Positions 20,315 through 48,473 of a stretch of DNA of 64,000 nucleotides are shown piece after piece. The notes under the pieces were generated by a model. The model was not told the origin of the DNA. It worked only from the letters and a program-made list of their open reading frames with translations, and ran no database searches. Position numbers and translations under genes: made by a program. Within the stretch, counting starts at the first letter, position 1. Each line of letters begins with the position of its first letter. Origin of the DNA: a virus. The stretch lies in IMG/VR virus record IMGVR_UViG_3300045988_173425, positions 32,001 through 96,000 of that record; one strand, given 5' to 3'.

Positions 20315-20629
20315 ATGGACCGATGGAAATATTTCAGAATAGGTGATGTCGTTGCAGACCCTGAAGTTTGGGGTCGGACGACGTTTGTAATACGCGCGTT
20401 TCACGGTAACGACTACTGCCCGTTAATTACTGGCGAGTCCCTAAAACCGATTCGCGGTCGCCGCATAAGGGTAAACCTCGGCGTCGGGGAGGTGCGACTT
20501 GTAAACGCTCCTAAACGTCCGTTGATGAAGGTTCCAGATGGTACGTTGGTGCGGTTGACTGGGAAGAGCGTTGAAGCGCGGCGAGAATTGTTAATTAGAA
20601 GCTATCGTAAACAGCATGGCGACCTTTGA
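20315..20629 (+). CDS. hypothetical protein
   Basis: ATG start. No motif recognised. Confidence 0.55.
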   Translation: MDRWKYFRIGDVVADPEVWGRTTFVIRAFHGNDYCPLITGESLKPIRGRRIRVNLGVGEVRLVNAPKRPLMKVPDGTLVRLTGKSVEARRELLIRSYRKQHGDL

Positions 20630-27328: not shown

Positions 27329-29092
27329 ATGAAAGAAATTATCAACTACGGCGAAGCGCGTCGCCAACAGATTCTCAAAGGATTCACCAACATCGACGAG
27401 GTCGCTGAAGAAGCGCCGATCGAAAAAGCGCGTCATGGCGTATACGCTGACAACGCCCAGAATCGTCGCCTCCAGCGCGTGGGACAGGAATACGGTCACG
27501 CCGCCAAAGAAGACCCTGAAGCAGGTCAAGAAGGCAACGAGGGTGTACCTGAAGGCAACGTGAGTCTCCAGAACCACGCTCGTCAGGCTTCCGAGGAGGC
27601 GCTGGTGAAAGTAGCCAACGACCCGTCGGCTGATGCCGAAATGCGCAAGGTGGCTACCGCTGAACTCGAACGGCGCGGCGTGAACGTTCGTGCCAAGAAC
27701 AAGAAGGGCGACCAGTCGCTGCGTAACGGTCTGGCTGACGGCGACGCCAAATCGGCTTCTACGTTTGAGTCGATGGGCTTCCGTCAAATGGACGACCGCG
27801 ATCTGGAGCAGTACGCCGGAGTGGAGGACGCTTCTCACGCTTTCATCAAGCAGGTAGGTGGTGACGAGGACGGCTTCGATCTGGTAGTTACCAAGACCAG
27901 CGAAGGATATCGCGTCGACAAATACCCCTACGCTGACGTGGACAACTTTGAGTCCGTGACGGTGAAGGAAATCGGCGACGTTGAAGGCGCTGCGTCGAAA
28001 TTCGGCGATCCCGACGCTAAAGGAAAGGGTGGAAAGGCTGACGCCAAATCGCTCATCGACAGTTTCAACGAAATGGCCGAGGGTAACGCTGACTTTGACG
28101 CCGAGTCGTTCAAATCCTTCGTCAAGGAAAAAGGCGGAAAGGCCGTGAAAGAACTGGCTGATGCTATTCGCAAGATGCCCAGCGAGGCTGGTCAGAGTGA
28201 TCTCGCCGACGACGAAATTGTCGATATGATCGAGAATATGTTCGAGGAGGCCGACACGCGTGTACCCAAGGAAGCCAAGAAGGAACTCGACAACCTTCGT
28301 GGGTCGGGTGAAAGCGTTCTTGCCAAGTGGGACGCCTATACTTCGGAGTCGGGTGAAGACGATGACTTCGGCGCAGCGCTCGAAAGCCTCATCGACAACA
28401 AGGGCGAGGCCAAGGCCATCAAGGAACTGGCCGCAGCCATGAAAGCAAATCCGGTTGATACTGGCGGTGTTCAGTCCGACGCTACGGACGACGAAATTGC
28501 CGACACCATCGCCAATATGTTCGAGATGGCTGGCGTGAAGGTATCGAAGGACGGCCAGAAGGAACTCGACGCGCTGATCGGCGGTGAGGAGGAAAGCGCC
28601 ACCAAGCAAGGTAAGAAGGCCGATGCTGCCGCCAAGGCCGAAGTGAAGAGTGCCGAGAAGGGCAACAAAGCTACAAAGTCTTCGTCTGAGAAGGATAACG
28701 CTGCGGCCGATAAATTCATCAAGAAAACCGGCAGAGGGGCTGATCCGGCTGAGTATGCCAAGATGATCGCCAAGAACCCCGAAGGCATTGCCCGCGCTCT
28801 GAAAGCAAGGATCGCATCCGGCGACAAAGAGGCCCAGCGTGCTGCTTTGAGCCTCAATTCGCTTACCGATCCGCAGTCGCGTGACAAGGGCGTCGGCCAA
28901 GAACTCCTCAGCCATCCTGAGTTGAAGAAAATCGCTGACGAGCGTCAGGCTGCGCGCGATTCGCTTCGCGGGGAGTATGATCCGGAAGAATACCGTAAGA
29001 AGGTTGACGCGCAAATCGAGGTAATGAAACGCACCAACAAGGAATTCGTTGACAAGTTCCTCGAAATCTACGCCAGTAACACCGAAGAGTAA
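27329..29092 (+). CDS. acidic protein with internal ~92-aa tandem repeat
   Basis: ATG after promoter copy 4. The two repeats share KAxKELAxAxxxxPxxxGxQSDxxDDEIxDxIxNMFExAxxxVxKxxxKELDxLxG. The 607-aa antisense ORF is judged a shadow. Confidence 0.7.
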   Translation: MKEIINYGEARRQQILKGFTNIDEVAEEAPIEKARHGVYADNAQNRRLQRVGQEYGHAAKEDPEAGQEGNEGVPEGNVSLQNHARQASEEALVKVANDPSADAEMRKVATAELERRGVNVRAKNKKGDQSLRNGLADGDAKSASTFESMGFRQMDDRDLEQYAGVEDASHAFIKQVGGDEDGFDLVVTKTSEGYRVDKYPYADVDNFESVTVKEIGDVEGAASKFGDPDAKGKGGKADAKSLIDSFNEMAEGNADFDAESFKSFVKEKGGKAVKELADAIRKMPSEAGQSDLADDEIVDMIENMFEEADTRVPKEAKKELDNLRGSGESVLAKWDAYTSESGEDDDFGAALESLIDNKGEAKAIKELAAAMKANPVDTGGVQSDATDDEIADTIANMFEMAGVKVSKDGQKELDALIGGEEESATKQGKKADAAAKAEVKSAEKGNKATKSSSEKDNAAADKFIKKTGRGADPAEYAKMIAKNPEGIARALKARIASGDKEAQRAALSLNSLTDPQSRDKGVGQELLSHPELKKIADERQAARDSLRGEYDPEEYRKKVDAQIEVMKRTNKEFVDKFLEIYASNTEE

Positions 29093-31292: not shown

Positions 31293-32251
31293 TGAAAAAC
31301 AAAATCGTACAAGACCCCCCGTTTACCATGCAGATCGAGCCGACCGAGGGGTGCAATCTGGGGTGTTCGTTCTGTGGTCTTCACGGTATGCGCGAAAAAG
31401 GGACTAAACCGTGGAATTTCATGACCGTTGAAACCGCCGAGCGTATTGCTTCGGAGGTGGCACGCGTGGGGTGGAACTGTAAGTTCGTGTTCGCTATGCA
31501 CGGCGAGCCGACGCTCAACCCCGCGTTCATCGACATCGTGGCTACGTTCCGCAAGCACTTGCCGAAGGCTGTGTTCCATATGTACAGCAACGGCTACGCC
31601 ATGAACCACGCTGCTGACACGTCCGAGTACCTCGACCGCCTGTTCGAGGCCGGCATGAACGACATACTGGTAGACTGTTACACAGCCAACGGCGACTGGA
31701 ACTTCGTCGAGAAGATCGACGTTGAAAAGTACAACGTCGTCACGCTGGAACCGGGCGTTCCGTACTACTATCCCAAGCAGGGGCGCCGTATCTGCCTGCT
31801 GCCGCCTATCGCCGAAGACGATACCAACAAGATGACGCGTCGTCTGGCCAATCACTGCGGTGCAGCGTTCCCGCTCGACGATTCGTTCAACAACAAGCGC
31901 TGCACCTTCCCGTTCCGTGAACTGGATGTGCGCTGGAATGGCCAGGTGTGTCTGTGCTGTGACGACTTCCGCGGCGAATATCCTATCGCCAATATCCACG
32001 ATATGCCTATCGAGGACCTTTGGAACCATCCGCGTTTCCACGCTGCTCGCGTTATGCTGTACAACAACGACCGCCGCTTCCGGCCGTGTCAAGGGTGTAC
32101 ACACGTCAGCGTCCGCGTCGGATTCCTGCCTGACAAAATGGGCAAGAAAACGCTGCCGCCTATTACGCCTGAAATTCGCCGCATGGCTGAAGACGTGTCG
32201 AAGGACGGCCCGTGTGCTGAGAAGATTTACAAACGGCCATGGGAAAAATAA
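31292..32251 (+). CDS. radical SAM enzyme with SPASM/twitch-type C-terminal domain
   Basis: CNLGCSFC (CxxxCxxC), the GEPTLNP SAM-binding motif, and the C-terminal Cys-rich CTFPF...GQVCLCCDDF...RPCQGC. Confidence 0.85.
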   Translation: MKNKIVQDPPFTMQIEPTEGCNLGCSFCGLHGMREKGTKPWNFMTVETAERIASEVARVGWNCKFVFAMHGEPTLNPAFIDIVATFRKHLPKAVFHMYSNGYAMNHAADTSEYLDRLFEAGMNDILVDCYTANGDWNFVEKIDVEKYNVVTLEPGVPYYYPKQGRRICLLPPIAEDDTNKMTRRLANHCGAAFPLDDSFNNKRCTFPFRELDVRWNGQVCLCCDDFRGEYPIANIHDMPIEDLWNHPRFHAARVMLYNNDRRFRPCQGCTHVSVRVGFLPDKMGKKTLPPITPEIRRMAEDVSKDGPCAEKIYKRPWEK

Positions 32252-35514: not shown

Positions 35515-37899
35515 ATGGATGAACTGAGAAAAGCGTTGGAAACATTCGCCCTTCGTAATGCAGAGGGCGAAGTTTCTGACGCATTATTGGAGAAAGCGTG
35601 CGAAGCGTACAAGGCTCGTTCTTCAGAGTTCGTCGATGATTACGAGTACAACCTGTATGTGGCAAAATCAGTCTACGACCACATACACGGCGTTGATCAG
35701 GACCCTGAAATAACAAAAGCCATCATGCCCGGCCAAACCAAGGTCGTTAACGGCGTGGTGTATATTTGGACGCTGACTCCAAACGCCAAAACAACTTACG
35801 ATTGGCGAGTTTACAAAAATGCCAATGGTAAGCCCATAGGCGCTGCTGCTTCAAAATCGCCGTCTACTCTGGCCAAGGAGGAAAAGGTCGTCAACGAAAT
35901 GTTCCCGGCCGATACTTCAGAACTGACGTTTGTAAAGAAATTAGGCGGTTCTACAGGGGCTGAGTTGATGAAAGACTCCAAGGGCCGTGAGTTTGTTGTC
36001 AAGAGTTCGAAGAATACCAGCCGCGGTCACGTTGCCGCAGAATACTACGCCGCGCAAGTTTACAGTCTTTTGGGGCTGGACACCCCGGACTATGAGTTGT
36101 ATGACGACGGAACCGACCTGACACTTATTTCGAACTACATGCGCGGTATGTCCGAACCGCAGGCCAAGGACTATGACGCCATGGCCAAGGGGTTTGCGGT
36201 TGATGCATTTCTGGCCAATTGGGATGTATATCAAAATGACAATTGCTTGGTAGACGCTGCCGGTAAAGTCTATCGTGTTGATAACGGCGGCTCGTTTAAC
36301 TACCGAGCGCAGGGAGCGCAAAAGCCTTTCATTGGTCAAATCGACTGGGACGGAATGGTGAAATACAACCCGAGTATTATCGCCAACCTCACCCCGCAAG
36401 ACTTTATTGACCAGATTGATGCTCTCAAGGCTCGTAAGGACGAAATATTGGCGTTCTTTGACGCTGGCAAACTGGCCTCTAAACCGAAGATGCGCGCCAT
36501 AATTGAAGCCCGTTTTGACGATTTAGATCGCATTCGCGGCATGTATGAGGTAGAACTCCAGCGCACCACCAGAAAGATTAAACCGCGGACACTGAAATCG
36601 CCTGCGGATATGTATCGCGATTTTACCGACGACGAGGTTAACAGTTTCTGGCAAAACGCCGCAGGTAATTCGTATTACCAGAAGTTGCAAAACCACAGTG
36701 GCTCTACAGGTTGGAACATACTTTCTGCCGTGTGCGGCGAACGTGGTTTTGACGCTCGCCCTGAAGTAGTCGATGACGCTACGTTCTGGGCAAAGGTAGC
36801 GCAAGCCAAATACCATATGTTCCGCGGTGTTGACCGTAAGGGAACCGACAAAGACTATTACGCTGACGACTTTAAGTACAACGACGAATGTTTCTACGGA
36901 ACGGTTGGCGTTTACGCTGAAGGAATCTATTTCCATGTCAACGATTCAGCCAACGCTAATCGAACTCCCTCGGGGTATCAACACACCTCTGCCTACAAGA
37001 ACGCGCGTGGTTACGCTGGGTCTGGGGCGATCATCGAGGCTTGTCTTGATTCCAGCGCCAAAGTCATAACTGTCGAAGACGCCAAGAAGGAAGTGTCTCA
37101 GTTATCAACCGTTAATTCTCCGGCATTCAAGGCTGCTCGTAAGGAACTCGATGACGCTACGGCGGAATACGAGCGTATCAACGACGAACTCATAAACCTT
37201 ACCGATAACACCAAGAACAAGGTTAAGGCCGACATGCACTGGGACGATGCTTCGTTTGTAGACATTCCGCTTCAAATCGATCAGGTCATCGACTGGGGCG
37301 CTATCGACGATGACGGAAATCCGGCATACATGAAGTTTGACGAGTTCATGGATAATCACCTCAAGGGATGGATAACAGCCAACGGCGGTACCATCACCGA
37401 AAAAGGTAAAGGCACAGGCGACTTTGTTATTCGAATGCCGAACACTACGGAGCGATTCGTGTTCTCGCGCTATCGGTACGAGAACGACGCCATAAAACGC
37501 AAGAACGCTTTTGCGCGTCCGTACAGCTATCCCGTCCGCCAGTTTAAGGAATGGATAATGCGCGAGCACTTTGGTAAGATTGAGGACGCCATCAAGGAGG
37601 CTGTTGACAATTTGGGCGATGAAGTTAATCGTTTACAAGGCGAGCGGAGTAAAGCGTACAATGTTTACAAGGAAAAGCAAAACGCGGTAAATAAGTTGAA
37701 CGTAGGCGCTGTTGGCGATCCTGACAAAGACATTTACGCCGCTATTTACAAAAACGTCATCAAGGATCAAGATAACGAAGCGCTGGGCATATACGCCGCT
37801 TTGAAGGGATATGACGCTCTTATTCAGCCTAACGGAAACGGTTGTGGTAATTCGTTCATGATCGTGTTGAATCGCTCAAAAATCATTACTCGTAAATAG
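35515..37899 (+). CDS. large multi-domain protein: kinase-like domain plus ADP-ribosyltransferase-like region
   Basis: Kinase-like: LGGSTGAEL, FVVK, AEYYAAQVY, DAFLANWDVYQNDNCLVD, YRVDNGGSF. ART-like: HMFRGV, YGTVGVYAEGIYF, AIIEACL. Confidence 0.45.
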   Translation: MDELRKALETFALRNAEGEVSDALLEKACEAYKARSSEFVDDYEYNLYVAKSVYDHIHGVDQDPEITKAIMPGQTKVVNGVVYIWTLTPNAKTTYDWRVYKNANGKPIGAAASKSPSTLAKEEKVVNEMFPADTSELTFVKKLGGSTGAELMKDSKGREFVVKSSKNTSRGHVAAEYYAAQVYSLLGLDTPDYELYDDGTDLTLISNYMRGMSEPQAKDYDAMAKGFAVDAFLANWDVYQNDNCLVDAAGKVYRVDNGGSFNYRAQGAQKPFIGQIDWDGMVKYNPSIIANLTPQDFIDQIDALKARKDEILAFFDAGKLASKPKMRAIIEARFDDLDRIRGMYEVELQRTTRKIKPRTLKSPADMYRDFTDDEVNSFWQNAAGNSYYQKLQNHSGSTGWNILSAVCGERGFDARPEVVDDATFWAKVAQAKYHMFRGVDRKGTDKDYYADDFKYNDECFYGTVGVYAEGIYFHVNDSANANRTPSGYQHTSAYKNARGYAGSGAIIEACLDSSAKVITVEDAKKEVSQLSTVNSPAFKAARKELDDATAEYERINDELINLTDNTKNKVKADMHWDDASFVDIPLQIDQVIDWGAIDDDGNPAYMKFDEFMDNHLKGWITANGGTITEKGKGTGDFVIRMPNTTERFVFSRYRYENDAIKRKNAFARPYSYPVRQFKEWIMREHFGKIEDAIKEAVDNLGDEVNRLQGERSKAYNVYKEKQNAVNKLNVGAVGDPDKDIYAAIYKNVIKDQDNEALGIYAALKGYDALIQPNGNGCGNSFMIVLNRSKIITRK

Positions 37900-37900
37900 T

Positions 37901-38317
37901 ATGAAAAAAGAACCAAGATACGGCATAGCGCGTATGCGAACGGCCTCTGTCGTTGGCGGTATGGCTTCGCCGTATGTAAATCGTAAACAACCCTCGCAGT
38001 TGATACCGTTCAAGGGTGATCTCCCGATGCTGAACGATATTGAAGCGATAAAATTCCGCAACGCCATTCGCGATACGTTGGCTCTTGACGAGTTGAGCAC
38101 CGTATTCCAGCGCGTGGCTACCGAGGGGCATCGTATTGCAGTCATGGAAGAAGGGTTCACGAAGTATTTGCGTGACCGCGGTGTAACGCCTGACGAGTTT
38201 GTAAAATTAAGCAACGCCGAGAAATCGGACTACTTGCTGGATTGGATGAATTTGAACTCCATTAGCTTGGAATCGCTTAAAATTACAATACACAATGGCG
38301 AAAATTACATACAATAA
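37901..38317 (+). CDS. hypothetical protein
   Basis: The ATG is 2 nt after the upstream stop. No motif recognised. Confidence 0.55.
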   Translation: MKKEPRYGIARMRTASVVGGMASPYVNRKQPSQLIPFKGDLPMLNDIEAIKFRNAIRDTLALDELSTVFQRVATEGHRIAVMEEGFTKYLRDRGVTPDEFVKLSNAEKSDYLLDWMNLNSISLESLKITIHNGENYIQ

Positions 38318-38819
38318 TCCCGCAGCGTTTGCTATCAACGACACTGTGAAAGAACTTATCAGCCGTGTGGCTGACGATACTGTCAACCCTGAAGTCGTCA
38401 TCACCTCTACGCTTCGCAGTCCTGAAGCGCAGGCCAAAGCCATGGCTGATAACCTTTACGCCGGCAAGCGTATTCGTTATCGCGCTCCGGGTGCAGCGGT
38501 TGTAAAGGTTTTTGACGACAACTGCAAGAAGCAGGCCCGTTCTGAAGTCGAGAAACTGATGGTCGCTGAAATCAAGCGTCAAGCCTCGTTGGGGCAGCGT
38601 GTTTCGCTCCACTGCACAACCGAAGAGTTATACCGCCAGTGCAACATCATCGATCTGTCGATCACCCGCATGAAAAACCCACGCGACTTCACAAAAGCAT
38701 TGGCCAAAGAAGAAAAGTGCCGTAAAATTATTACGCCGCTTGGCGATACGAAGTACGACAGTCCGAAGGTTTCTATTGACGCCAACGAGCCTGCAATACA
38801 CGTTGAAATAATGGCGTGA
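38295..38819 (+). CDS. possible LAS/M15-type zinc peptidase (cell-wall hydrolase candidate)
   Basis: ITSTLRSPEAQ, SLHCT...IIDLS and AIHVEI resemble the SxxR / HxxxxxD / H layout of M15 peptidases. Confidence 0.35.
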   Translation: MAKITYNNPAAFAINDTVKELISRVADDTVNPEVVITSTLRSPEAQAKAMADNLYAGKRIRYRAPGAAVVKVFDDNCKKQARSEVEKLMVAEIKRQASLGQRVSLHCTTEELYRQCNIIDLSITRMKNPRDFTKALAKEEKCRKIITPLGDTKYDSPKVSIDANEPAIHVEIMA

Positions 38820-38825
38820 CAACTA

Positions 38826-38833
38826 TAAATTTG
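38826..38833 (+). promoter_or_regulatory. candidate Bacteroidota-type -7 box
   Basis: TAAATTTG matches TAnnTTTG and lies 24 nt upstream of ATG 38857. Confidence 0.3.
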
Positions 38834-38856
38834 TAAATTCATAAAATAATAGAAAT

Positions 38857-40617
38857 ATGCCTACTTTTATTGACATGTCTGCGTTGACGCTGAAGTCTTC
38901 GGCCAGCGGACAAGAAGAAATTCAGGTTTCTGAGTCCAACAAGATCAACACAAGCCAGATTGCGGCGTTGACGTTTTCGCAAGATCCGTCGCTTGGCAAT
39001 TTGCCCATTTCCAGCAATTTTACATACGGCAATAGCAAGGTAAAACTTTGGAATATGCTCAGACTACTGACCGCAGCGGCGAATATCGGACGTCTGCGTA
39101 TCGTGTCAGGGAATCCCGCGTCAGGCGCATCAGGAAAACCTGAAATGGCGTTTATTGTCAATATACTCCAAGGAACGAACGCCGAAACCGGAGGCACGAA
39201 CGGTCTCCAAATTTTCCATCTTACCAACGATTATATTCGCGTCATTCCTTCGTCCAGTGTTGCTATGGCATGGTCTACACTCCAGACTCTGACCGACGAA
39301 GCAATCATCACGAAACTGCACTCGACCGCTTCTGGCGATTGGGGTGGTCTGGGTGTAACGATGGAGTGGGCCGGAAGCGGCGGCAGCGCCATGAAATATC
39401 TGACGGTTACTGATTTTACCCGCAACACTTTCAGTAATGGCGCGATTGGTGATCTCGCCGTTGGTGAGATGTTCACGTTTACAAGCGCCGTTGACGCCGC
39501 TAACGGACCCGGTGCGGCTTTGGTAGGTTATGCTGTAAAAGTTTCTGCTTTGTCGGTTAAATATGTCGGCACTTCTACCTCAATCAATACTTATAGCCGC
39601 TCATATCTGTATACTTACCAGTCTACGAGTATTTACAATACGAACTGGTCTATTGTTGGCACCCCCACGGGAATCGAAGCCTCGGTGTACGAATTCACAT
39701 ACGGCGAAAGTGAAGGCGTGCCCACTGCCGATTTGAAATTCGTCAAGGTTGCCGATATCTTCCGTATGATATTCAGTACCCCCGATCAGGCAGACTACGG
39801 TCAATTAGATTTTATCCGGTCTCAAGACAACGATAAAACCGATCAATATGTCTTCGTCTGTCCTTCGGTAGACACCGGCTCGACGTATGGCGGTACGCTA
39901 CAGCGCATCGCTGTTGACGCAACAACCGGAGCCGTGGATATGACGGGAGTAAGTCTTGCTATTGCAAACCAGCCAGCAACAACAATACGGGTGACTAACT
40001 TCAACGCCCCTACGAATAATATTATAAAACAGTTGGCCACAGGTCAAGGAGTGATCATATGTACAGCAGGCTCAACAGTTGGAGGACCTTCAGGCGTTAC
40101 TGCGCCTTTATACGGTCATTGCTTCAGGAGTTCATCAGGACCTATTATTTACACCTATCTGCTTCAAACGGCTGATGGTAGCCGTACTTTCTCTGGCTCG
40201 ACGAACGGAACTACTGCTCAATGGACAGAACTTGGTGGCGGCGGAGCAGGAGTCGAGCAACTTTTCAGTGGCGATATTGCGTTAGCTAATGCAGCACCCG
40301 AAACATTCAATCTCGGCGGAGAGGTAAGCGACGGCGACCGCCTTATGATTGTTTATAACTTTATATCGAGCGATCATACCATGATCGGAAGCAAACAAGG
40401 ACGGAGCATAATTTGGGTCAGCACCAGCGGCACTGAAGACCTAACCGTAGAAGCGCTTAATTACAATACCCAAGGAGACGTTACGAGGTTAGTTGGCTTT
40501 AATCTGATGTTGTCGGCTTCGGGAAGCATACTCAATATGGAAGCGACAGGAGATGTTGACACAGTCATTGAGGCTTTCCATGTCGTAGGTATATACAGGC
40601 TATCTAAATCGCTGTAA
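38857..40617 (+). CDS. tail fibre / receptor-binding protein candidate with switchable C-terminal tip
   Basis: 586 aa, Ser/Thr/Gly-rich. The C-terminal ~122 aa lie inside the segment bounded by the 63-bp inverted repeats. Confidence 0.55.
   Translation: MPTFIDMSALTLKSSASGQEEIQVSESNKINTSQIAALTFSQDPSLGNLPISSNFTYGNSKVKLWNMLRLLTAAANIGRLRIVSGNPASGASGKPEMAFIVNILQGTNAETGGTNGLQIFHLTNDYIRVIPSSSVAMAWSTLQTLTDEAIITKLHSTASGDWGGLGVTMEWAGSGGSAMKYLTVTDFTRNTFSNGAIGDLAVGEMFTFTSAVDAANGPGAALVGYAVKVSALSVKYVGTSTSINTYSRSYLYTYQSTSIYNTNWSIVGTPTGIEASVYEFTYGESEGVPTADLKFVKVADIFRMIFSTPDQADYGQLDFIRSQDNDKTDQYVFVCPSVDTGSTYGGTLQRIAVDATTGAVDMTGVSLAIANQPATTIRVTNFNAPTNNIIKQLATGQGVIICTAGSTVGGPSGVTAPLYGHCFRSSSGPIIYTYLLQTADGSRTFSGSTNGTTAQWTELGGGGAGVEQLFSGDIALANAAPETFNLGGEVSDGDRLMIVYNFISSDHTMIGSKQGRSIIWVSTSGTEDLTVEALNYNTQGDVTRLVGFNLMLSASGSILNMEATGDVDTVIEAFHVVGIYRLSKSL
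40184..40246 (+). repeat. inverted repeat, left copy (63 bp, perfect)
   Basis: GTACTTTCTCTGGCTCGACGAACGGAACTACTGCTCAATGGACAGAACTTGGTGGCGGCGGAG. Its exact reverse complement is at 41381-41443. Confidence 0.95.
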
Positions 40618-40622
40618 GTAAA

Positions 40623-40643
40623 AGCCCCTCGAAATGAGGGGCT
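40623..40643. terminator. bidirectional hairpin between the convergent tip ORFs
   Basis: AGCCCCTC, loop GAAAT, GAGGGGCT. T-rich on the + side and A-rich upstream. Confidence 0.6.
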
Positions 40644-40649
40644 CTTCTA

Positions 40650-41459
40650 TTAATTAGCCTTGAAATATATCCCTTTTATTTGGATAATATCCGATACGTC
40701 TGACAAGTTGTTCGATTGCACGACAACGTTCATGCCTTGAACGCCGTTGGCTCCGGTGATAACCGACGAACAGATAAGTTTGATAGAACCCGGAACCGAG
40801 TTACTACCCAGATATGTCGAGCATATCTCAAACAATACCCCTTGTCCGGTTCCATTAATAGCCGCGACCGTGAGAGGCACCGGGAACTTAATAGCAGCCG
40901 TTGCAGCAGGGCTGGACTGGATGGTCGCTTCGATAAGTATTTTCGCGGTGGTAGGTATCTCCTGATTGAAATTAATAACCCCACTCGTTCCGGATGGTCC
41001 TACGGCACTACTCCACGAACTTACAATCCGTTTCCAGCCGGGGAAGATTTCACTTGAGCCGCTCGATGATAAATCGTACTTTTTCTCTTCTAAGACATCC
41101 CCTGCGCTGTTCAACAGTATTTGATACCAGATGCCCGAAAGGAAATTATCCTCCTGAAAGACATTAAGGGTTACCACATAACCGTCGTCGGAGGAAATAG
41201 TACCGTCGTCTACCTTTTGAACATTTCCGACCAAAGTACAATTCGATGGGACATCCGCAGGTAATCCAGCTACTCCCGCCGGGTCGTATATGATGACAGG
41301 ATAAATTTGCCCTAACTCCTTCCATGTAACAGAAGTGACGGCTTTGGAGATGCTTTCGGCATCCGAGATCATGATGACGCCTCCGCCGCCACCAAGTTCT
41401 GTCCATTGAGCAGTAGTTCCGTTCGTCGAGCCAGAGAAAGTACCAACGCGATTCGCCAT
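40650..41459 (-). CDS. alternative fibre-tip cassette
   Basis: The only convincing minus-strand ORF. Residues 7-26 (TFSGSTNGTTAQWTELGGGG) are identical to the + strand fibre because of the inverted repeat. C-terminal IKGIYFKAN resembles VVGIYRLSKSL. Confidence 0.6.
   Translation of the reverse strand: MANRVGTFSGSTNGTTAQWTELGGGGGVIMISDAESISKAVTSVTWKELGQIYPVIIYDPAGVAGLPADVPSNCTLVGNVQKVDDGTISSDDGYVVTLNVFQEDNFLSGIWYQILLNSAGDVLEEKKYDLSSSGSSEIFPGWKRIVSSWSSAVGPSGTSGVINFNQEIPTTAKILIEATIQSSPAATAAIKFPVPLTVAAINGTGQGVLFEICSTYLGSNSVPGSIKLICSSVITGANGVQGMNVVVQSNNLSDVSDIIQIKGIYFKAN
41381..41443 (-). repeat. inverted repeat, right copy (63 bp, perfect)
   Basis: Exact reverse complement of 40184-40246. Confidence 0.95.
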
Positions 41460-41495
41460 TACAAGTATAACGGTGGTAACAATAGTGCCGTAAAC

Positions 41496-43040
41496 ATGTT
41501 TAAGGACGATAAATTCAATTTTTGGTGCCCTATCGAGCCCATAAAGAAGGCTACCGACGAGGAAACAGGCGAACCTGTTATGCGCATCGGCGGTATTGCT
41601 TCAACCGTCGATCAGGATGCTGACGGCGAAACACTCGATCCGTCAGGCTTCGACATCCAGCCCTTGAAGGAGTCGGGAATGGTCAACTGGCACCATCAGG
41701 CCAAGAACTCGCCTGCAGCAATCATCGGCGAACCATCGAAAGTAGAACTGCGCCCCGAGGGTCTTTGGATCGAGAGTGATTTGTACGCTTCGTCACCTAT
41801 GGCTAATGAGGTATATGAGTTAGCCAAAACTCTCGAAGAAAACAGCAAGACACGCCGCTTGGGATATTCCATCGAAGGCAAGGTTATAAAACGTGCTTCC
41901 AACGACAAGAAATCACCCTTATACAACAAGATCGTGAAGGCGGTGATTACAGGCGTTGCTGTAACACACATGCCGAAGAACCCTCACACGTTCGTCAACA
42001 TCATCAAAGGTCAGGTTGACGCCGATGGTATTGAGGTAGATTTAGAAGAGGAGGACGATAACGCTGAAGAGCGTGGCGGCAAGACCGAAAAGAAGGCTTT
42101 AACTACTGAATCCGGCGCAGCGCTTATGCCTGAATCCGTAGACGGCCAACCGAAGAAAACGTTTTCAAAATCTTCCGTCATGGAATGTATCTTCCGCGAC
42201 ATTCCAAATATTACAATACCGAACGCCCAAGAATTGTATACTTTAATCAAAAATATATCGGTTATGAACAAACGCAAATCCATCACTTCCGAGGACATCG
42301 AGAAGGCATATGACGCTCTGGGGCTTGCTCCTGAGAAGAAAGCCGACAATGCCGAGGACGTGCAGAAGGGCGATGACGCTGATGGCCAGATGGGGAAGGA
42401 AGACGAAACCCACGACGACGAGCCGCGTCACAACGCCGCTAACGCAAAGAACGCCGTTGCAGGCAAGAAGGAAGAATCTGAGGAAGAGACCGAGGACGAC
42501 GACGAGGGTTTCGAGGAGTGCGACAAGAACGGCGCCAAGATGAAGAAGGGTGCCGATAACGACATCCTGAAGGCTATTCATGGTGTTGGAGACGAATTCA
42601 AGTCGTACATTCGCGCTACTGCCGTACTGGTGAACGATCTTCGTCAGAAACGCGCTGAAGACGCTAAACGTATCGGCGAACTCGAAAACATCATCAAGGG
42701 TCAGACCGAGATCATCGAGGGCTTCTCCACCAAATTGGAGCGCTACGGCAGCGAGGTTCCGCGGCCGAAGTCGCTGCGTTCGGCTACGGTGGTTGATCGT
42801 GCCTTCGCGAAGGGAAACGCCGACAACGGTATCGAGAAGGGCGGTAGCGCCACTCGCATTTCGTTGCGTGAAAACCCGAAAGCCGTTGCGTCGCTGCTCG
42901 ACCAGGCATCGTTCGCCAAGGGCTACGACAAGGAGTACGGCGATGCGCTTTTGGCGTTTGAGGCACGCCCCGCTGACGGTCTCCCCAAGAACATTATCGC
43001 TCGCCTCAAGGCTGAAACCGGGTACGAGGTAGTAGAGTAA
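41496..43040 (+). CDS. prohead protease fused to a scaffold-like C-terminal region
   Basis: Track ORF starts on TTG at 41406 inside the repeat; the first ATG is 41496. GGIASTVDQDADGETLDPSGF, VNWHHQ and RLGYSIEGK resemble the HK97-type S78 protease. The C-terminal half is acidic and helical. Confidence 0.6.
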   Translation: MFKDDKFNFWCPIEPIKKATDEETGEPVMRIGGIASTVDQDADGETLDPSGFDIQPLKESGMVNWHHQAKNSPAAIIGEPSKVELRPEGLWIESDLYASSPMANEVYELAKTLEENSKTRRLGYSIEGKVIKRASNDKKSPLYNKIVKAVITGVAVTHMPKNPHTFVNIIKGQVDADGIEVDLEEEDDNAEERGGKTEKKALTTESGAALMPESVDGQPKKTFSKSSVMECIFRDIPNITIPNAQELYTLIKNISVMNKRKSITSEDIEKAYDALGLAPEKKADNAEDVQKGDDADGQMGKEDETHDDEPRHNAANAKNAVAGKKEESEEETEDDDEGFEECDKNGAKMKKGADNDILKAIHGVGDEFKSYIRATAVLVNDLRQKRAEDAKRIGELENIIKGQTEIIEGFSTKLERYGSEVPRPKSLRSATVVDRAFAKGNADNGIEKGGSATRISLRENPKAVASLLDQASFAKGYDKEYGDALLAFEARPADGLPKNIIARLKAETGYEVVE

Positions 43041-43078
43041 ACACCCAAACAATTTCCTAACATAATCAATTCCAAATC

Positions 43079-44566
43079 ATGGACAGACTTTCTATCAATC
43101 TCGCCGACTATGGCATCCAAGCGCGTGGTGCCCAGTACGGCTCGTCCAGTCAGGAAGAGGTCGCTGCGCTGAACAAAGCCCTCGAAGCAACCGACATCAC
43201 GGGTCGCCAGACGACGAACCTGACCGATGCCTCGGGTGCTCCGCTGAAGGTGGAGTCGCTGGAGCGTACTCTGAAACATCTGACGTTCCGCGAGAGCGAC
43301 ATCGTTCTCTGGAAGAACCTGCCGAAAAAGGCCGCTTACAACACCGTTGAGGAGTACAACCAGCTGGCATCGTACGGTGCTGACCGCGGTGGCTTCACCA
43401 ACGAAGGCGAACTCCCCGACGAGGAAGACTCGATCTACATCCGTCGGGCTCAGCTCGTGAAGTATCTCGGCGTTACGAAGTCGGTTACGCACCAGATGAC
43501 CCTCGTCAACACGATGGTGGGCAACATCATGGAGCGCACCATCAAGGACGGCACGCTGTGGATTCTCCGCAAACTGAACAAGTCGCTGTACTACGGCAAC
43601 TCGGACATCATCCCGCAGGAGTTCAACGGTCTACTCGCCCAGCAACTGCAGTCTGACGCGTGGAGCGGTCTGGACGCCTACCTCAATTCGGAGAACGTCA
43701 TCGACCTTCGCGGTCGCGGCCTGACGGAGGACCCCATCGAGACGGCGGCCAACTCGATCGTCGAGAACTACGGCCTCGGCACGGAACTATACGCTCCCCC
43801 CGCCGTTCTGTCGGACTTCGTCAAGACGTTCTACGGCAACAAGTTCATCCAGCCCAACACCGCCCAGACCAGCGCTGGTATCATGGGTCAGCGCGTTCAG
43901 GCCTTCGACTCGCAGTTCGGCCGCATCGGTCTGAATTACGACGTCTTCTTCAAGAAGGCTGCGTTCAAGGTCGCTGGTGCCCAGTCGACGCATCCCAAGT
44001 CGCCTGCCGCTCCCACGTGGGACGCTACCACCCCGGCTGCTGTCGTAGCTGACGTGTCGACCTCGAAGTTCACTTCGGAGGACGCCGGCAACTACATCTA
44101 CGCTATCGCCGCCATCAACCGCCACGGCGAGTCGTCGCTGGTGGTCAACGAGACTCCGGTAGCCGTGACGGCAGGTTCGGTCGTCGACCTCAAGTTCTCG
44201 ATCGTGGACAACGCTCACCCGGCTACGGGTTATCGTATCTACCGTTCGAAGAAGGGTGGCGACAAGAACAGCAAACTGTACCCGATCTTCGACATCTCGG
44301 TGGCTCAGCTGAAACTGGGCTACGCAGGCGCTGCCGGCGACCTGTGCCGCGACAACAACTACTTCCTGCCCGACTGCGATCAGGCCTTCCTGGTACAGTT
44401 CGACAACGAGGTGATTGAGTTCGCCCAGCTGGCCCCGCTGATGAAGATGGACCTGGCGATTCTGTCGCCTGCGTACCGCTTCATGGTGCTGCTGTACGGT
44501 ACGCCGTTCCTGTACGCGCCGAAGAAACTGGTTCGTCTGATCAACATCGGACGCGCCGCCAACTAA
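43079..44566 (+). CDS. major capsid protein
   Basis: 495-aa ORF directly after the protease/scaffold gene, followed by a strong terminator. Assignment is from position and size. Confidence 0.65.
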   Translation: MDRLSINLADYGIQARGAQYGSSSQEEVAALNKALEATDITGRQTTNLTDASGAPLKVESLERTLKHLTFRESDIVLWKNLPKKAAYNTVEEYNQLASYGADRGGFTNEGELPDEEDSIYIRRAQLVKYLGVTKSVTHQMTLVNTMVGNIMERTIKDGTLWILRKLNKSLYYGNSDIIPQEFNGLLAQQLQSDAWSGLDAYLNSENVIDLRGRGLTEDPIETAANSIVENYGLGTELYAPPAVLSDFVKTFYGNKFIQPNTAQTSAGIMGQRVQAFDSQFGRIGLNYDVFFKKAAFKVAGAQSTHPKSPAAPTWDATTPAAVVADVSTSKFTSEDAGNYIYAIAAINRHGESSLVVNETPVAVTAGSVVDLKFSIVDNAHPATGYRIYRSKKGGDKNSKLYPIFDISVAQLKLGYAGAAGDLCRDNNYFLPDCDQAFLVQFDNEVIEFAQLAPLMKMDLAILSPAYRFMVLLYGTPFLYAPKKLVRLINIGRAAN

Positions 44567-44588
44567 CGAAACAATCGTTCAACCGAGA

Positions 44589-44625
44589 AGCAGGGGCGGG
44601 GGTAGCCCCGCTCCTGCTTTTCATT
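44589..44625 (+). terminator. rho-independent terminator
   Basis: AGCAGGGGCGGGG pairs with CCCCGCTCCTGCT (13 pairs including one G-T), followed by TTTTC. Confidence 0.8.
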
Positions 44626-44637
44626 AAATCGTAAGCA

Positions 44638-45021
44638 ATGAAACTGAAAACCAACAATGCGTCCCTTTACGGTTCGCGCCTTACCGTCCCCGTTGACGGC
44701 ACAATCCAAATCGACCGCAACGGTGAGATCAACGTATCTGAAGCCTGCGCCCGCCATCTGCTGACGCTCCCCGAGTGGGTAGCAGCCGGAAAAGACAAGG
44801 CAAAGAACGCCGACCCCGAGCCGGAGGCTGAACCTGAAGAGGCCGATCAGAACAAGGCCGTCATCGATCAGATTCGCGCCATGTCGCTCGAAGAAATGAT
44901 CGAGACCGCTGCCGAGGCTGGTTACCCCGAGGACGAGTACAAGAAGTTCGTAAAGAACGCCAAATTGATGGCAGCCTATCTGGTGAAGAAATACAAGGCC
45001 GCTGTCGCCGCTGAGGAGTAG
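44638..45021 (+). CDS. hypothetical head-associated protein
   Basis: 127 aa with an acidic linker (PEPEAEPEEAD). Assignment is from position only. Confidence 0.45.
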   Translation: MKLKTNNASLYGSRLTVPVDGTIQIDRNGEINVSEACARHLLTLPEWVAAGKDKAKNADPEPEAEPEEADQNKAVIDQIRAMSLEEMIETAAEAGYPEDEYKKFVKNAKLMAAYLVKKYKAAVAAEE

Positions 45022-45061
45022 TTTCCTCGTCTAACCGTTACGACTCGCAAAACAGACCAAA

Positions 45062-45856
45062 ATGACTCTTCAATTAGACATCCTCTATAACAAGAACGAA
45101 GGCCTCGTCATAAGCCCTTCGGAGTTGGCCGAAAACTACCTTTTTGGCATTCCGATGTGCGCTCCTGACGGCCAGCGTGTCGCCGAGTCCTCCATCAAGA
45201 CCCAGATCAAGGTGGCGCAGACACAGGTTGAAAACCTACTGTCGATAAAACTCAAAAGGCAGGTTATTGAGGAAAGCCGCGATTACATTCGCGAAGAGTG
45301 GAACAACTGGGGCTTCATTCGTGCGATGTACCCTGTGGTGTGTATACGTTCGTTGTGCGGTTTCATCAACTCTGTTATGCAGACCCGCTACCCATCGGAG
45401 TGGCTTTCTATCAAGAAGATCGCTTCAGTAGCCGTGTATCGTAACATTTCGCTGATCCCTAATTCCGGTTCTGGAAAAGGGGCTATCATGACGCAGAATT
45501 CGTATGTATACAACGGCATTGCTCCCAATTTAGGGTGGTTTGGTCAAAAGTACATCCCCAACTACTGGCGGCTGAAATACGTCACCGGATGGAACGAAAT
45601 ACCTGCCGACCTGCTAAACTTCATAGCCAAGGCCGCAGCGTTGAACGTTCTGGCGTTGATAGGCGATGTACTGTACGGCGTGGGCATGTCGTCGGTGAGC
45701 ATTTCACTGGACGGTGTGTCGCAAAACACGCCGTTGACACGTTCGGCCCAAGGCGGTCTATTCGGCGGCCGCATTAAACTGTATCTGGACGAACTGAATC
45801 AACAACTGCCGAATCTCAAGAACCAATACCGCGGTATCGCGTTTGATGTACTGTAA
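45062..45856 (+). CDS. head completion / connector candidate
   Basis: Located between the capsid and tail genes. No motif recognised. Confidence 0.4.
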   Translation: MTLQLDILYNKNEGLVISPSELAENYLFGIPMCAPDGQRVAESSIKTQIKVAQTQVENLLSIKLKRQVIEESRDYIREEWNNWGFIRAMYPVVCIRSLCGFINSVMQTRYPSEWLSIKKIASVAVYRNISLIPNSGSGKGAIMTQNSYVYNGIAPNLGWFGQKYIPNYWRLKYVTGWNEIPADLLNFIAKAAALNVLALIGDVLYGVGMSSVSISLDGVSQNTPLTRSAQGGLFGGRIKLYLDELNQQLPNLKNQYRGIAFDVL

Positions 45857-46689
45857 TGGCCAAGAAGCAATCCATATTGAGCGCGTCTATCGTTGACACC
45901 CCACCCGTGAGCCTGACCCCCGCACAACCGGGGCGTCCGGCCGTGGGATGGGACGTGGGGCGTTTCGAACGCTTGATATACGACCAAGGATATGATGCCT
46001 ACATCGACCGCGCTATGCGTTGCCCGTGTGTGGACAAGACCAGCGGTCAGGCTTCGTCAACGTGCCAAAACTGCTATGGCCGTGGCTGGTTCTTTGTAAA
46101 TCGACGTGAAACACGCCTCATAGCCCAGACCATGGGTAACCGCCGTAAGTACGAAGAGTGGAGCGAACTCAATATCGGCACCGCGGCTATCACGGCTCGT
46201 GCTGTTGACCGTATGGGGTTTATGGACCGCGTCGTGCTGTTGGACTTGGAAGGCTATTTCTCTGAAATACTCCGTCCGACTATCTACCGCAACGAGCTGT
46301 TCGCCTATCCGGTGTATGAACCGCTGGAAATTACCGACATATTCCTTCATGTCGCTGACGGTGAACCGCTGCGGCCGCTTACTACGGCCGAGTTCCGCGT
46401 AGACAAGAACAGGGTCGTTTTCAGCAAGGATTTGATCGGTATGGTAGAAAGTAACGACCCCAACGCAAAAGCCGGAAATTTGACCGTTTCCGTTCGTTAC
46501 AAGCACTATCCCGTATACCACATAATCGACGTTGACCGTGAACTGATGCAAGTGCGCGAGGGAAAGCCCTGCGCTGCGCGACGTGAGGCGTTGACGGCGA
46601 TGCCTGTAAAGGTTGTTGGCCGTAAGGCTGAATATGTATTCCCGCCTATGCGGTATGGCGATGTTCCTTATGACAACACGGTGAAATGA
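45856..46689 (+). CDS. virion-module protein with Cys4 cluster
   Basis: CPCVDKTSGQASSTCQNCYGRG. Lies in the neck region. Confidence 0.45.
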   Translation: MAKKQSILSASIVDTPPVSLTPAQPGRPAVGWDVGRFERLIYDQGYDAYIDRAMRCPCVDKTSGQASSTCQNCYGRGWFFVNRRETRLIAQTMGNRRKYEEWSELNIGTAAITARAVDRMGFMDRVVLLDLEGYFSEILRPTIYRNELFAYPVYEPLEITDIFLHVADGEPLRPLTTAEFRVDKNRVVFSKDLIGMVESNDPNAKAGNLTVSVRYKHYPVYHIIDVDRELMQVREGKPCAARREALTAMPVKVVGRKAEYVFPPMRYGDVPYDNTVK

Positions 46690-46976
46690 AAAAGGTGATT
46701 GAAAAGTTCATTGGATGGCTTAATGTCGTCCCCAAGGATAAGTATCAGCATTTTACGCTTGGAGCAATTATCGCTTCCGTGGCGTTAATAATCGCTGCGC
46801 CTTTGATCGACTGTTGGCGTTGGCTACCTTTGGTGATATCGGTAGTCGCTTTGGTGTCATTGGCCATGGTGAAGGAATACGCAGTAGATTCGAAGGTTGA
46901 CGTGAACGACATTCTCTGGACAATGGGCGGTGGATATACGGTTTGGGTGATATTCATTGTATTCATCAATGGCTAA
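46686..46976 (+). CDS. small integral membrane protein
   Basis: Three hydrophobic helices: LGAIIASVALIIAAPLI, LPLVISVVALVSLAMV and GGGYTVWVIFIVFI. Confidence 0.5.
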   Translation: MKKVIEKFIGWLNVVPKDKYQHFTLGAIIASVALIIAAPLIDCWRWLPLVISVVALVSLAMVKEYAVDSKVDVNDILWTMGGGYTVWVIFIVFING

Positions 46977-47772
46977 ACCAATCAACATAGACGTTACAGG
47001 TTTAGGCGCCCAGTTTGGACTCACGCAAGCCCAGATTGACGACCTAACTGAACTCTGTGTTCAAGCCGTTACTGCTGCTGTATACGCCAACTGGCAGGCG
47101 TTGGCCAAACAAGGATTAAATTCAACACGCCCCGAATACCTCCAAAATCTAAACATAATCGATCGCGGCCGTTTCGCCAAGTCGATTGTCCTCACGGGGG
47201 AATTACCAGTGATGCTGGAGGCCGGGGCAACCCCTTTCGACCAAAAGGAATATTTTCAACGGTCATCGAAGGTCCGCCACACGGTGCCTGTACTGCGCAA
47301 GGACGGTACGGTACTGAAACCCGGCGGCGATTGGTATTTGACTGTTCCGTTCCGTCACGGCACGCCGGGAACGGTTGGTCAGGCAGGATTCTCCGACGAA
47401 ATGCCGCAAGAGGTTTACGACGTGGTCCGCACGTTTGTTACTGGCCAACGGCTACGCGCTTCGCAGATTCCTTCACCGTACAACGTACCGACCGAGCGTC
47501 GGGCCATTGCCGCTACTGACCGTTCACCAGCGTATGGCGCTTATATTCGCCGACACTCCATCTACGAGGGCATCACCAAGCAGACAGGAGTTTACGCCCG
47601 AACGACTCAAAACATGTACGTCTCATTCCGTCGAGCGTCAAAGAACTCCGACCCGTTGAGTTGGATATTCCCGGGCCTTACGGCGCGACGCTTCGCCGAC
47701 AAGGCCATCGACCAGACGGATGTTGAAACAATAGTACACAACGAATCGGTTAATTTCTTAGAGAACCTATGA
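46969..47772 (+). CDS. neck / tail-completion candidate
   Basis: Track ORF starts on TTG at 46957; the ATG at 46969 overlaps the upstream gene end. Assignment is from position only. Confidence 0.45.
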   Translation: MAKPINIDVTGLGAQFGLTQAQIDDLTELCVQAVTAAVYANWQALAKQGLNSTRPEYLQNLNIIDRGRFAKSIVLTGELPVMLEAGATPFDQKEYFQRSSKVRHTVPVLRKDGTVLKPGGDWYLTVPFRHGTPGTVGQAGFSDEMPQEVYDVVRTFVTGQRLRASQIPSPYNVPTERRAIAATDRSPAYGAYIRRHSIYEGITKQTGVYARTTQNMYVSFRRASKNSDPLSWIFPGLTARRFADKAIDQTDVETIVHNESVNFLENL

Positions 47773-48473
47773 AAGTAGACGCCCTTATACTGCCCGAGGT
47801 GATAATCGCCCGCGTGTTGAACGCTATCGTGAAAATGATACGCGACGACATTGCACTCACCGTACCACAAGACGTCAAGAACACCATACTTTACCAGCTG
47901 TTGGGTGAAAACGAGGACGGACAACCCATCCGCATGAATGCCTATAACTATTTCCGGCAGGCGGTAAAGATATTTTCTAATCCGGCGAATTTGGAGGTCC
48001 ATTTAGGATACAATCCTCAGGTGACGACCGCCCTCGCCGTTCACATCATTTTGCCCGGCGAACAAGCCTCAAATGCCCCATTAGGCGAGGGGCAGGAATG
48101 GGACGCTGACGCGGACCAGTTCATGTACACGCAGTGGATGGACGCACAGTATCAAATTCTCATCACGTCGGATAACTCTTCCGAGGCTATGATAGCCTAC
48201 AACGTATTGAAAGCCATGCTGCTGATGTACGCTCCAAACCTCGATTTAGTGGGGTTACGCATTCCGCGCGTATCAGGCGGCGATATAATCCTTCAACAGG
48301 ATATAATTCCGCCAACAGTATTCCACAAGGCACTCACACTGGCGTTCAAATACGAGGTTACAGTTCCAACAAGATTGCGTGCCCAAGTCGTAAAGGCCAT
48401 CAGCTACAATTATAACATTTGCGACCCGTTTGACGGTGAAAACGTAATTCCCGGCGACGGTAAAACTGAATAA
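47769..48473 (+). CDS. neck / tail-completion candidate
   Basis: ATG overlapping the upstream stop. Lies immediately before the sheath gene. Confidence 0.45.
   Translation: MKVDALILPEVIIARVLNAIVKMIRDDIALTVPQDVKNTILYQLLGENEDGQPIRMNAYNYFRQAVKIFSNPANLEVHLGYNPQVTTALAVHIILPGEQASNAPLGEGQEWDADADQFMYTQWMDAQYQILITSDNSSEAMIAYNVLKAMLLMYAPNLDLVGLRIPRVSGGDIILQQDIIPPTVFHKALTLAFKYEVTVPTRLRAQVVKAISYNYNICDPFDGENVIPGDGKTE

Follow-up and report, generated by a model that had tools for sequence, protein, structure and literature searches.

A fibre-like gene with an invertible tip cassette in a ~100-kb gut phage genome without a recognisable site-specific recombinase

How a phage gene may hold two alternative ends for one fibre-like protein, and by what means it would pass from one to the other, is the question raised by a locus in a stretch of 64,000 nucleotides (nt) of viral DNA (hereafter the window; positions 32,001 to 96,000 of the IMG/VR record IMGVR_UViG_3300045988_173425), which is part of the 100,969-bp contig k119_208838 of the ENA assembly ERZ27260846. 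In this locus, a fibre-like open reading frame (ORF) and a minus-strand ORF converge on each other and carry, in inverted orientation, the same 63-bp repeat. The initial annotation, made from the DNA letters alone, read the arrangement as an invertible cassette that would swap the C-terminal tip of the fibre, with no invertase in sight. The evidence presented below concerns whether the segment does invert, what could drive the inversion and what the exchanged tips may be for.

The perfect repeat at 40184-40246 / 41381-41443 was borne out by a repeat search in the region of the fibre and by pairwise alignment of the two arms. The inverted pair extends over 105 nt (40142-40246 / 41381-41485) with 83% identity, its inner 63 nt are identical at 63/63 positions, and the identity breaks off abruptly at the inner side. 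Such a match is not the product of chance, and it is the sole inverted repeat of at least 28 nt in the window (seed 14). The ORF coordinates also stood as annotated, and frame arithmetic places the start of the repeat at codon position 2 in both ORFs ((40184-38857) mod 3 = 1; (41459-41443) mod 3 = 1), each of them encoding the common 20-residue peptide TFSGSTNGTTAQWTELGGGG. The constant portion of the fibre comprises 443 residues plus the 20 residues of the repeat, and it is followed by a tip of 123 residues in the window (tip A) or, after inversion, by one of 243 residues (tip B), in agreement with the ~463, ~122 and ~242 residues first estimated. Apart from the two tips and a hairpin between them the segment holds nothing else, the other ORFs between 40247 and 41380 being shadow frames only.

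The answer to whether this segment inverts comes from contigs that encode exactly the head maturation protease found next to the cassette. Five places were returned, of which L028 was left out (it begins inside the right arm), leaving the ENA metagenome contigs L026 (ERZ28646159, 53 kb), L027 (ERZ28660035, 100,066 bp), L029 (ERZ27271216) and L030 (ERZ27271212). All four align to the window in three blocks, the middle one reversed: the flanks (window 36504-40246 and 41381-48063) run forward at 99.4-99.96% identity where the contig extends, and the segment (window 41443-40184) is reversed at 98.4-99.6%. The left flank of 3,680 nt (36504-40183) has only 3-4 differences in L026 and L027 (99.9%), and the right flank of 2,315 nt has one. 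The exchange is reciprocal and exact at both arms, as the tabulated junction sequences attest. In L026, L027 and L029 the fibre body continues in frame into tip B, and the very product predicted to result from inversion is present in L027 as a fibre of 706 residues composed of the window's body, the repeat peptide and tip B (...YTYLLQTADGSRTFSGSTNGTTAQWTELGGGGGVIMISDAE...IKGIYFKAN). Conversely, the ORF in the protease-proximal slot of L027 has 149 residues and consists of MANRVG, the repeat peptide and tip A; this tip occupies the slot also in L014, L026, L029, L030, L088, L089 and L096. On the evidence of these assembled contigs, the 1,260-bp segment 40184-41443 is confirmed as a genuine invertible cassette, with both orientations (state A in the window, state B in the four contigs) present in nature. 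Neither the junction predicted for the inverted state, looked for as an exact string in IMG/VR (where the near-isogenic genomes are absent), nor a 22-mer taken from the repeat, looked for exactly in JGI metagenome contigs, had any match.

Two peculiarities of the segment deserve mention in their own right. Between the window and L027, whose flanks are ~0.1% diverged, 18 of the 20 differences in the segment lie within ~200 nt (window 40816-41014, in the C-terminal domain of tip B), which marks this part of the tip as hypervariable or mosaic. In turn, a stretch of N interrupts tip B in the state-B scaffold L026, where the frame is also broken (~4180-4200), an assembly disturbance that possibly stems from a mixed population.

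The arrangement is not confined to these genomes. When 28 IMG/VR loci with a homologue of the protease were compared, a convergent cassette was found between fibre and protease in about half of them. A second pair in opposite states was recognised among these relatives: L092 has tip A on the fibre and a different tip (C) in the slot, L096 has tip C on the fibre and tip A in the slot, and the 885-bp segment, inverted between them, is 98.2% identical although the flanks are just 87-91% identical. In L014, L017, L088 and L090 the two positions are taken by still other tips (D, E and more). The repeats are equally diverse. A perfect repeat of 56-63 nt is shared by the window, L015, L026, L027, L088, L092 and L096, with at least 51 nt visible up to the contig end in L089; perfect repeats of 96 nt and 104 nt are found, respectively, in L099 (4454-4549/5350-5445) and in L104 (4477-4580/5365-5468), L105, L106 and L110; and shorter ones occur in L112 (30 nt, perfect) and L113 (33 nt at 97%). 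The 63-, 96-, 104-, 30- and 33-nt types have no common substring longer than 9 nt and sit at differing positions of different fibre bodies. For the L099 and L104 types (also L105, L106 and L110, the slot cassette being joined to a different fibre type), no inverted partner was found in the sample.

The way in which the arms vary is informative about their history. L015, which is 97.3% identical to the window and also in state A, has a perfect 60-nt repeat that differs from that of the window by three substitutions (two of them synonymous, including GAA CTT to GAA TTA) and a 3-nt deletion, and every one of these changes is present in both arms. Four haplotypes of the 63-nt type could be distinguished, each common to both arms of its genome, and three haplotypes of the 104-nt type (L104, L105 and L110), with 100% identity within a genome and 94-99% between genomes. 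Judging from these alignments, the repeat arms evolve in concert, being identical within a genome and drifting between genomes. Since the changes in both arms include synonymous ones, selection on the peptide is no explanation, and repeated DNA exchange from arm to arm can explain the pattern. In L017 and L090 the arms are mismatched at 2-3 positions and no inverted partner was found for either; in this small sample, their condition fits a dependence of inversion on homology.

The search for an enzyme that could catalyse the inversion was directed at Pfam-detectable families in ORFs of at least 100-120 residues. In the window, 61 ORFs of at least 120 residues, large minus-strand frames included, matched 22 families, none of which was Resolvase, Recombinase, HTH_7, Phage_integrase or a transposase, and the initial annotation was therefore right in recognising no invertase in the 64 kb. 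It had also proposed that the rest of the phage genome be searched. The remaining ~36 kb were covered through relatives, namely L022 and L025, in which the window's terminal genes are exact, and L049 and L074 (IMG/VR contig, helicases 100%), a gap of 534 nt between the latter two lying outside the scan. Among the 39 ORFs of this portion no serine or tyrosine recombinase or transposase family was detected, and the precomputed Pfam calls for L022 and L025 include no recombinase. As far as these scans reach, this is a ~100-kb genome without a recognisable site-specific recombinase. What the genome does encode is a UvsX-like recombinase (phrog_97, 3.6e-36; Pfam RecA, 1.3e-12), SbcD-like and SbcC-like nuclease subunits, DnaB, UvrD and DEAD helicases and, within the window, a 5'-3' exonuclease.

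Whether the cassette in the slot is a silent store of sequence or a gene of its own can be approached from its surroundings. As annotated, no other gene occupies the minus strand, all of its neighbours being called on one strand in near-identical contigs, and its ATG (41459) is separated by the expected 36 nt from that of the protease (41496, MFKDD...). In L099 a stop codon lies directly upstream of the repeat and the cassette has no start codon, in genomes of the L104 type the first Met falls inside the repeat, and in the window it is a Thr codon of the fibre body that stands opposite the MANRVG start codon in the alignment; gene callers start the 269-residue ORF at Met30, which gives 240 residues, and for this reason the 269-residue form has no exact match on record. 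The pattern TTTG-N17-23-TAnnTTTG, of the Bacteroidetes promoter type, has 2 matches against 1.1 expected, none adjoining the cassette, a count that speaks neither for nor against a promoter. From its strand and start codons it is plausible that the cassette is silent in the present orientation. Nevertheless, tip A is intact in 20/20 copies examined, with ratios of non-synonymous to synonymous substitution (dN/dS) of 0.08-0.39, and among slot copies the ratio (0.08-0.25) is not above that of expressed copies. By this measure silent cassettes stay intact under purifying selection, and since tip A is kept intact in the slot it must often be exposed to selection, whether through flipping or through expression while in the slot. 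The origin of the slot is indicated by the decayed outer extension of the right arm, which takes in the MANRVG start codon (41457-41459) and some of the 36-nt gap. Its in-frame reading, GTIVTTVILVMANRVG, aligns with GPIIYTYLLQTADGSR of the fibre body, the stretch being identical in L015, and because the extension copies fibre-body codons, the slot derives from the duplication of a fibre 3' end.

Three sources of the flip had been envisaged at the outset (a recombinase elsewhere in the phage genome, one borrowed from the host, or homologous recombination), and of these the evidence favours the last. The reading preferred here, to which a probability of roughly 0.6 may be assigned, is a homology-driven fibre-tip switch that operates free of any site-specific recombinase. 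It is favoured because no such enzyme was found, the repeats are lineage-specific, their identity is perfect over the full length, the arms evolve in concert and the UvsX/SbcCD set is at hand, and also because the repeat lengths are near the minimal homology that RecA/UvsX-type systems use efficiently. In this model, the segment would flip by intramolecular homologous recombination between the arms, carried out either by the phage UvsX-like recombinase with the SbcCD-like nuclease or by host RecA, and gene conversion during flips would keep the arms identical. The cassette in the protease-proximal slot would not be made into fibre until flipped in. The tips would act as receptor-binding modules, and the flip as a bet-hedging host-range switch against the variable surfaces of Bacteroidales. 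A broader proposition, namely that programmed host-range switching without a dedicated recombinase, in which a gut phage of virulent type would store a reserve receptor-binding tip in antisense and flip it into the fibre gene through its own UvsX-type homologous recombination, evolved repeatedly within this clade, each time with unrelated repeats placed differently in different fibre types, and that the cassettes circulate between phage families including Crassvirales, is more tentative and falls somewhat short of even odds.

The same fibre module occurs in a second group of phages (L001-L009, ~63-kb contigs), which are unrelated to the first and whose fibre is 80% identical to the window's body. 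L004 (6292-7126) and L008 (6052-6886) differ by a clean inversion of an 835-bp cassette with two tips, a cassette found also in L003, L005, L006, L007 and L009, and the inversion runs across 20-nt repeats with a conserved ACGGGTAGCTCRRRTG, encoding TGSS-N/G-E. A search of the window that tolerated up to 3 mismatches did not find this site. A three-site shufflon in this second group was considered and is unsupported, with at most two copies of the site per locus. Besides the cassette, a ~5-kb block (as L003:3212-8500), which holds a 176-residue gene and a tail-like gene of 1365-1440 residues, is inverted relative to the fibre in L006 and L009 when compared with L003 and L007. After inversion of this block the upstream context of the silent cassette reads ...IIYQITGSS rather than ...SVNQITGSS, and the difference could not be reduced to one event. 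In the first group, L088 (4519-4600; protease 100% identical) has the fibre body joined straight to the C-terminal domain of tip B, the first domain being skipped, and the junction (GGCGGTAGCTCAAATGAAATC) resembles the 20-nt site of the second group, which hints at a possible traffic of cassettes between the two.

With regard to the nature of the protein itself, neither the fibre-like protein nor the cassette product had a sequence match in Pfam, PHROGs or the PDB. The domains of tip B, however, recur behind Mtd_N, a domain of the tropism determinant of Bordetella phage, in P0002, P0003 and P0025 (30-31 bits, cutoff 26.3) and directly behind the same fibre N-terminus in P0022 and P0014. Structure prediction of the tips had been proposed initially, and the AlphaFold2 model of tip B has a predicted local distance difference test (pLDDT) score of 80 and shows two all-beta domains after a disordered repeat peptide. 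In BFVD, the tip B model retrieved a homologue from phage cr111_1 (E 1.7e-6) and a "tail fiber protein" (E 5.8e-6), with template-modelling (TM) scores of only ~0.3. In the low-confidence fibre model the repeat peptide forms strands at 444-449 and 454-460, followed by a low-pLDDT Gly linker at 460-466, and the position of this linker suggests that the repeat ends at a domain boundary. The recurrence of the tip B domains and the BFVD matches suggest that the tips are fibre modules, which may bind receptors and influence host range. The tip ends had been described as related. They share the short motif "G-I/V-Y", in which the Tyr is the one position conserved in all tip types, with no significant similarity beyond it (BLASTP E = 0.12), and a homology of tip A with the C-terminal domain of tip B, considered on the same comparison, is likewise unsupported.

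Several points weigh against the preferred reading. The two states were found in different human-gut samples, and the orientations were thus compared between samples. A repeat of 63 nt is short for efficient RecA-type recombination, and the 20 nt of the second phage group are too short for it to proceed easily, the flip in that group looking more like site-specific recombination. Many phage ORFs received no family in the Pfam scans, and an invertase encoded by one of them, or by the host, would remain a candidate. The window's cassette has its own in-frame ATG, that of MANRVG, and may be translated independently from it. Finally, the identification as a tail fibre is itself exposed to doubt: none of the 678 homologues of the constant part is annotated or has a Pfam domain, the tip B model found no fold in the PDB at E <= 0.001 (TM-scores < 0.25), the full-length model is poor (pLDDT 56, predicted TM score 0.28), and the gene is placed between those for the portal and the head protease, away from the tail genes, so that the fibre may be one of the head instead of the tail.

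The explanation nearest to homology-driven inversion keeps the same tip switch and attributes its catalysis to a site-specific recombinase acting on a short core within the 63-bp repeat, be it an invertase of the Bacteroidales host (Mpi-like, of the serine type, or Tsr-like, of the tyrosine type) or a phage protein that escaped recognition, with the long repeat as a by-product of repeated exchange. Precedent speaks for it, because the classical fibre switches are all catalysed by recombinases and programmed inversions usually are, and so do the cassette inverting across the 20-nt repeats in the second group and the many phage ORFs lacking a family. Yet the whole genome yielded no recombinase family, and the second group's site is not in the window. 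In addition, the sister-lineage repeat types share no core longer than 9 nt, so that one enzyme could not serve all of them. The repeats, perfect throughout 30-104 nt, exceed what site-specific systems need, and the genomes with mismatched arms (L017 and L090) are, in a small sample, those without an inverted partner. On balance, catalysis by such an enzyme is considered unlikely. 

A programmed switch would be dispensed with entirely if the minus-strand ORF were an independent small gene, for example one for a second fibre-tip protein, and the two arrangements resulted from rare recombination or from horizontal exchange of cassettes between co-infecting relatives. The ATG of MANRVG and the calling of products of 240 or 149 residues by gene callers are what such a gene would show, and the fibre region is indeed highly mosaic, with many tip and body types and a module common to unrelated phage groups; the L092/L096 segment, more alike than its flanks, also suggests lateral transfer of the cassette. 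Against this, genomes with ~0.1% divergence elsewhere are set apart by the inversion, which is therefore rapid in comparison with point mutation; the swap keeps the reading frame and is precisely reciprocal, and arms that evolve in concert must have exchanged sequence repeatedly. The cassette of L099 has no start codon and the Met of L104 is part of the repeat; just 36 nt separate the cassette from the divergent gene in an otherwise strictly one-stranded genome, and the same architecture recurs with unrelated repeats. An independent gene is hence regarded as quite improbable. Hardly any credence is left for an assembly artefact, which the initial annotation had allowed for, with assemblers choosing at random the orientation of an inner segment that is ambiguous at the repeat. 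The Logan contig L016 ends exactly 30 nt inside each arm, and the N-gap of L026 lies inside the segment. The breaks in L016 were also considered as a sign of mixed orientations, an interpretation rejected because any repeat that exceeds k interrupts a de Bruijn graph, whether or not inversion occurs. The window contig was assembled at k119 (state A) and L029 and L030 at k95 (state B); both values exceed the 63-nt repeat, so that the junction k-mers are supported by reads and no assembler ambiguity arises. Moreover, diverged lineages hold fixed, differing arrangements, and the evidence that the arms evolve in concert does not depend on how orientation was called.

Comparison with known systems helps to define what is unusual here. 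Phage Mu G (Gin) and P1 C (Cin) are invertible tail-fibre host-range switches of temperate enterobacterial phages. The locus resembles them in the inverted repeats within the fibre gene, the constant N-terminus, the two convergent C-termini swapped in frame, and the non-expressed copy without expression signals of its own. It differs from them in having no serine invertase, adjacent or distant, and no co-inverted assembly or chaperone gene (U/U'). The conserved ~26-bp crossover site of Mu G, P1 C and e14 P (Pin) has no counterpart among the clade repeats, which were compared among themselves and not to the gix/hix consensus. These repeats are instead coding, 30-104 nt long, perfect and different in sequence between sister lineages, and the carrier is an apparently virulent gut phage of ~100 kb. 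In short, the logic is that of the Mu G and P1 C switches (cited in PMC13501310 and PMC12247996), but the locus falls outside the serine-invertase class, lacking the invertase, the conserved site and the co-inverted assembly gene. With the Min system of p15B and the R64 shufflon (Rci) it shares the choice of surface adhesin or fibre C-termini by inversion, and a population repertoire of many tips (A-E and more). In these phages, unlike in Min and Rci, each genome is limited to a pair of cassettes and a single pair of repeats, the larger repertoire being distributed over different genomes, and there is no Rci/Min recombinase, no Phage_integrase match and no conserved 19-26-bp site of the Min, Rci or Tsr type.

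A closer parallel is offered by inversions that depend on homology. Inversion at hsdS loci persists without a local recombinase, and the flip-flop of plastid and herpesvirus inverted repeats is likewise homology-driven. Recombinase-independent inversion at phase-variable type I restriction-modification hsdS loci is alluded to in PMC9881135. Such flip-flops have in common with the present locus the perfect repeats free to differ between lineages, the absence of a dedicated recombinase, the two isomers and the concerted arms; what sets the locus apart is that its repeat is very short (63 nt) and lies in frame within a structural gene, so that a flip recodes the protein. Anabaena cyanophages have an invertible region of ~30 kb flanked by inverted repeats (bioRxiv 10.64898/2026.02.14.705889), which the abstract does not present as a fibre-tip swap. 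The purpose of diversifying a receptor-binding tip is shared with the Mtd diversity-generating retroelement (DGR) of Bordetella phage BPP-1 and of Bacteroides phages, and relatives of tip B carry Mtd_N; the phage described here has two pre-made cassettes and not mutagenesis, and no reverse transcriptase (RVT) was detected in the Pfam scans of the window and of the rest of the genome, nor any template/variable direct repeat near the fibre. Inversions that alter genes have been studied systematically in bacteria and prophages with the expectation that a recombinase lies nearby, although invertible loci without an adjacent one are known (PMC9881135), and a method paper of 2026 only suggests viral invertons (PMC13501310). 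A literature search of incomplete coverage found no description of this system, which is absence of evidence only.

The features of the locus are collected in Table 1.

Table 1. Coordinates, strand and properties of the features at the invertible locus, numbered as in the 64,000-nt window.
Feature	Coordinates	Strand	Remarks
Fibre-like ORF	38857..40617	+	586 aa
Minus-strand ORF (cassette)	40650..41459	-	269 aa
Constant fibre body, residues 1-443	38857..40183	+	unmoved in both orientations
Left repeat arm	40184..40246	+	perfect 63 bp, encodes TFSGSTNGTTAQWTELGGGG, ends at Gly-rich linker
Tip A, 123 aa, ends VVGIYRLSKSL	40247..40617	+	attached to fibre body in the window
Hairpin between convergent tips, within invertible segment	40623..40643	.	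G+C-rich, 9 pairs, 6 G-C, loop 3
Tip B, 243 aa, two all-beta domains, ends IKGIYFKAN	40650..41380	-	in non-expressed slot in the window
Right repeat arm	41381..41443	-	perfect 63 bp
Decayed outer repeat extension	41444..41485	-	degenerate copy of fibre-body codons upstream of left arm

The hairpin on which the two tips had been said to converge does have a stem and is located between the stop codons of both ORFs, 3' of whichever tip is expressed; it may act as a terminator, with a weak T-run. Beyond the cassette, the head maturation protease (phrog_1028, 2.4e-34) is followed by the major capsid protein (phrog_752, 3.7e-87).

As for the phage that carries the locus, a crAss-like identity, suggested by a first BLAST match to the Crassvirales phage cr111_1, was rejected, as the fibre module alone is shared, and Baseplate_J, a capsid protein of the SPO1/SU10 type and PolIII alpha set the genome apart from crAss-like phages. 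The window also encodes a portal and a baseplate wedge protein, and no integrase was found; the gene content is that of an apparently virulent, myovirus-like gut phage of ~100 kb. Its relatives all come from human-gut samples, and the nearest cultured major capsid proteins, at 49% identity, are those of the Bacteroides thetaiotaomicron phages DAC16-23 and SJC03. Together with the fibre module held in common with a Crassvirales phage, this capsid relationship lends indirect support to the Bacteroidota host initially proposed, and a host among the Bacteroidales is likely.

Further features of the window lie outside the fibre locus. A 5-hydroxymethyldeoxyuridine (5-hmdU) DNA kinase (8.3e-51), a TET-associated glycosyltransferase (a second member also matches) and a radical-SAM/SPASM protein are encoded on the plus strand at 20616-21626, 15096-15911 and 31292-32251, respectively, and the phage DNA is probably hypermodified. 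An intein is embedded in the 905-residue ORF at 12359-15076 (+), and a homing endonuclease is part of it (Hom_end_hint 1.5e-11, LAGLIDADG_3, Hom_end). A direct repeat of ~73 nt is present in three copies (1091-1163, 4154-4226 and 17471-17543), which are 62-71% identical, end in ...GGAAAATGAAACTAAAA and look like a repeated regulatory or promoter cassette, and an 84-nt direct repeat (76%; 28208-28291 / 28487-28570) is an internal duplication inside a 587-residue ORF (27329..29092) whose protein has no family.

In summary, an outcome of the Mu/P1 type is met in an abundant, uncultured clade of ~100-kb human-gut phages in which no invertase was recognised. Inversion-based host-range switching could therefore be far commoner than is detected by searches anchored on a recombinase (PMC9881135). 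The near-isogenic pairs in both states, for which sample accessions exist, make read-level and experimental tests possible. Host prediction for Bacteroidales phages and the design of phage therapy would both be affected, given that one genome may have two adsorption specificities of which an assembly shows one. If the reading proposed here is true, short coding inverted repeats would represent a general, easily evolved and overlooked bet-hedging route for lytic phages facing the phase-variable surfaces of Bacteroidales.

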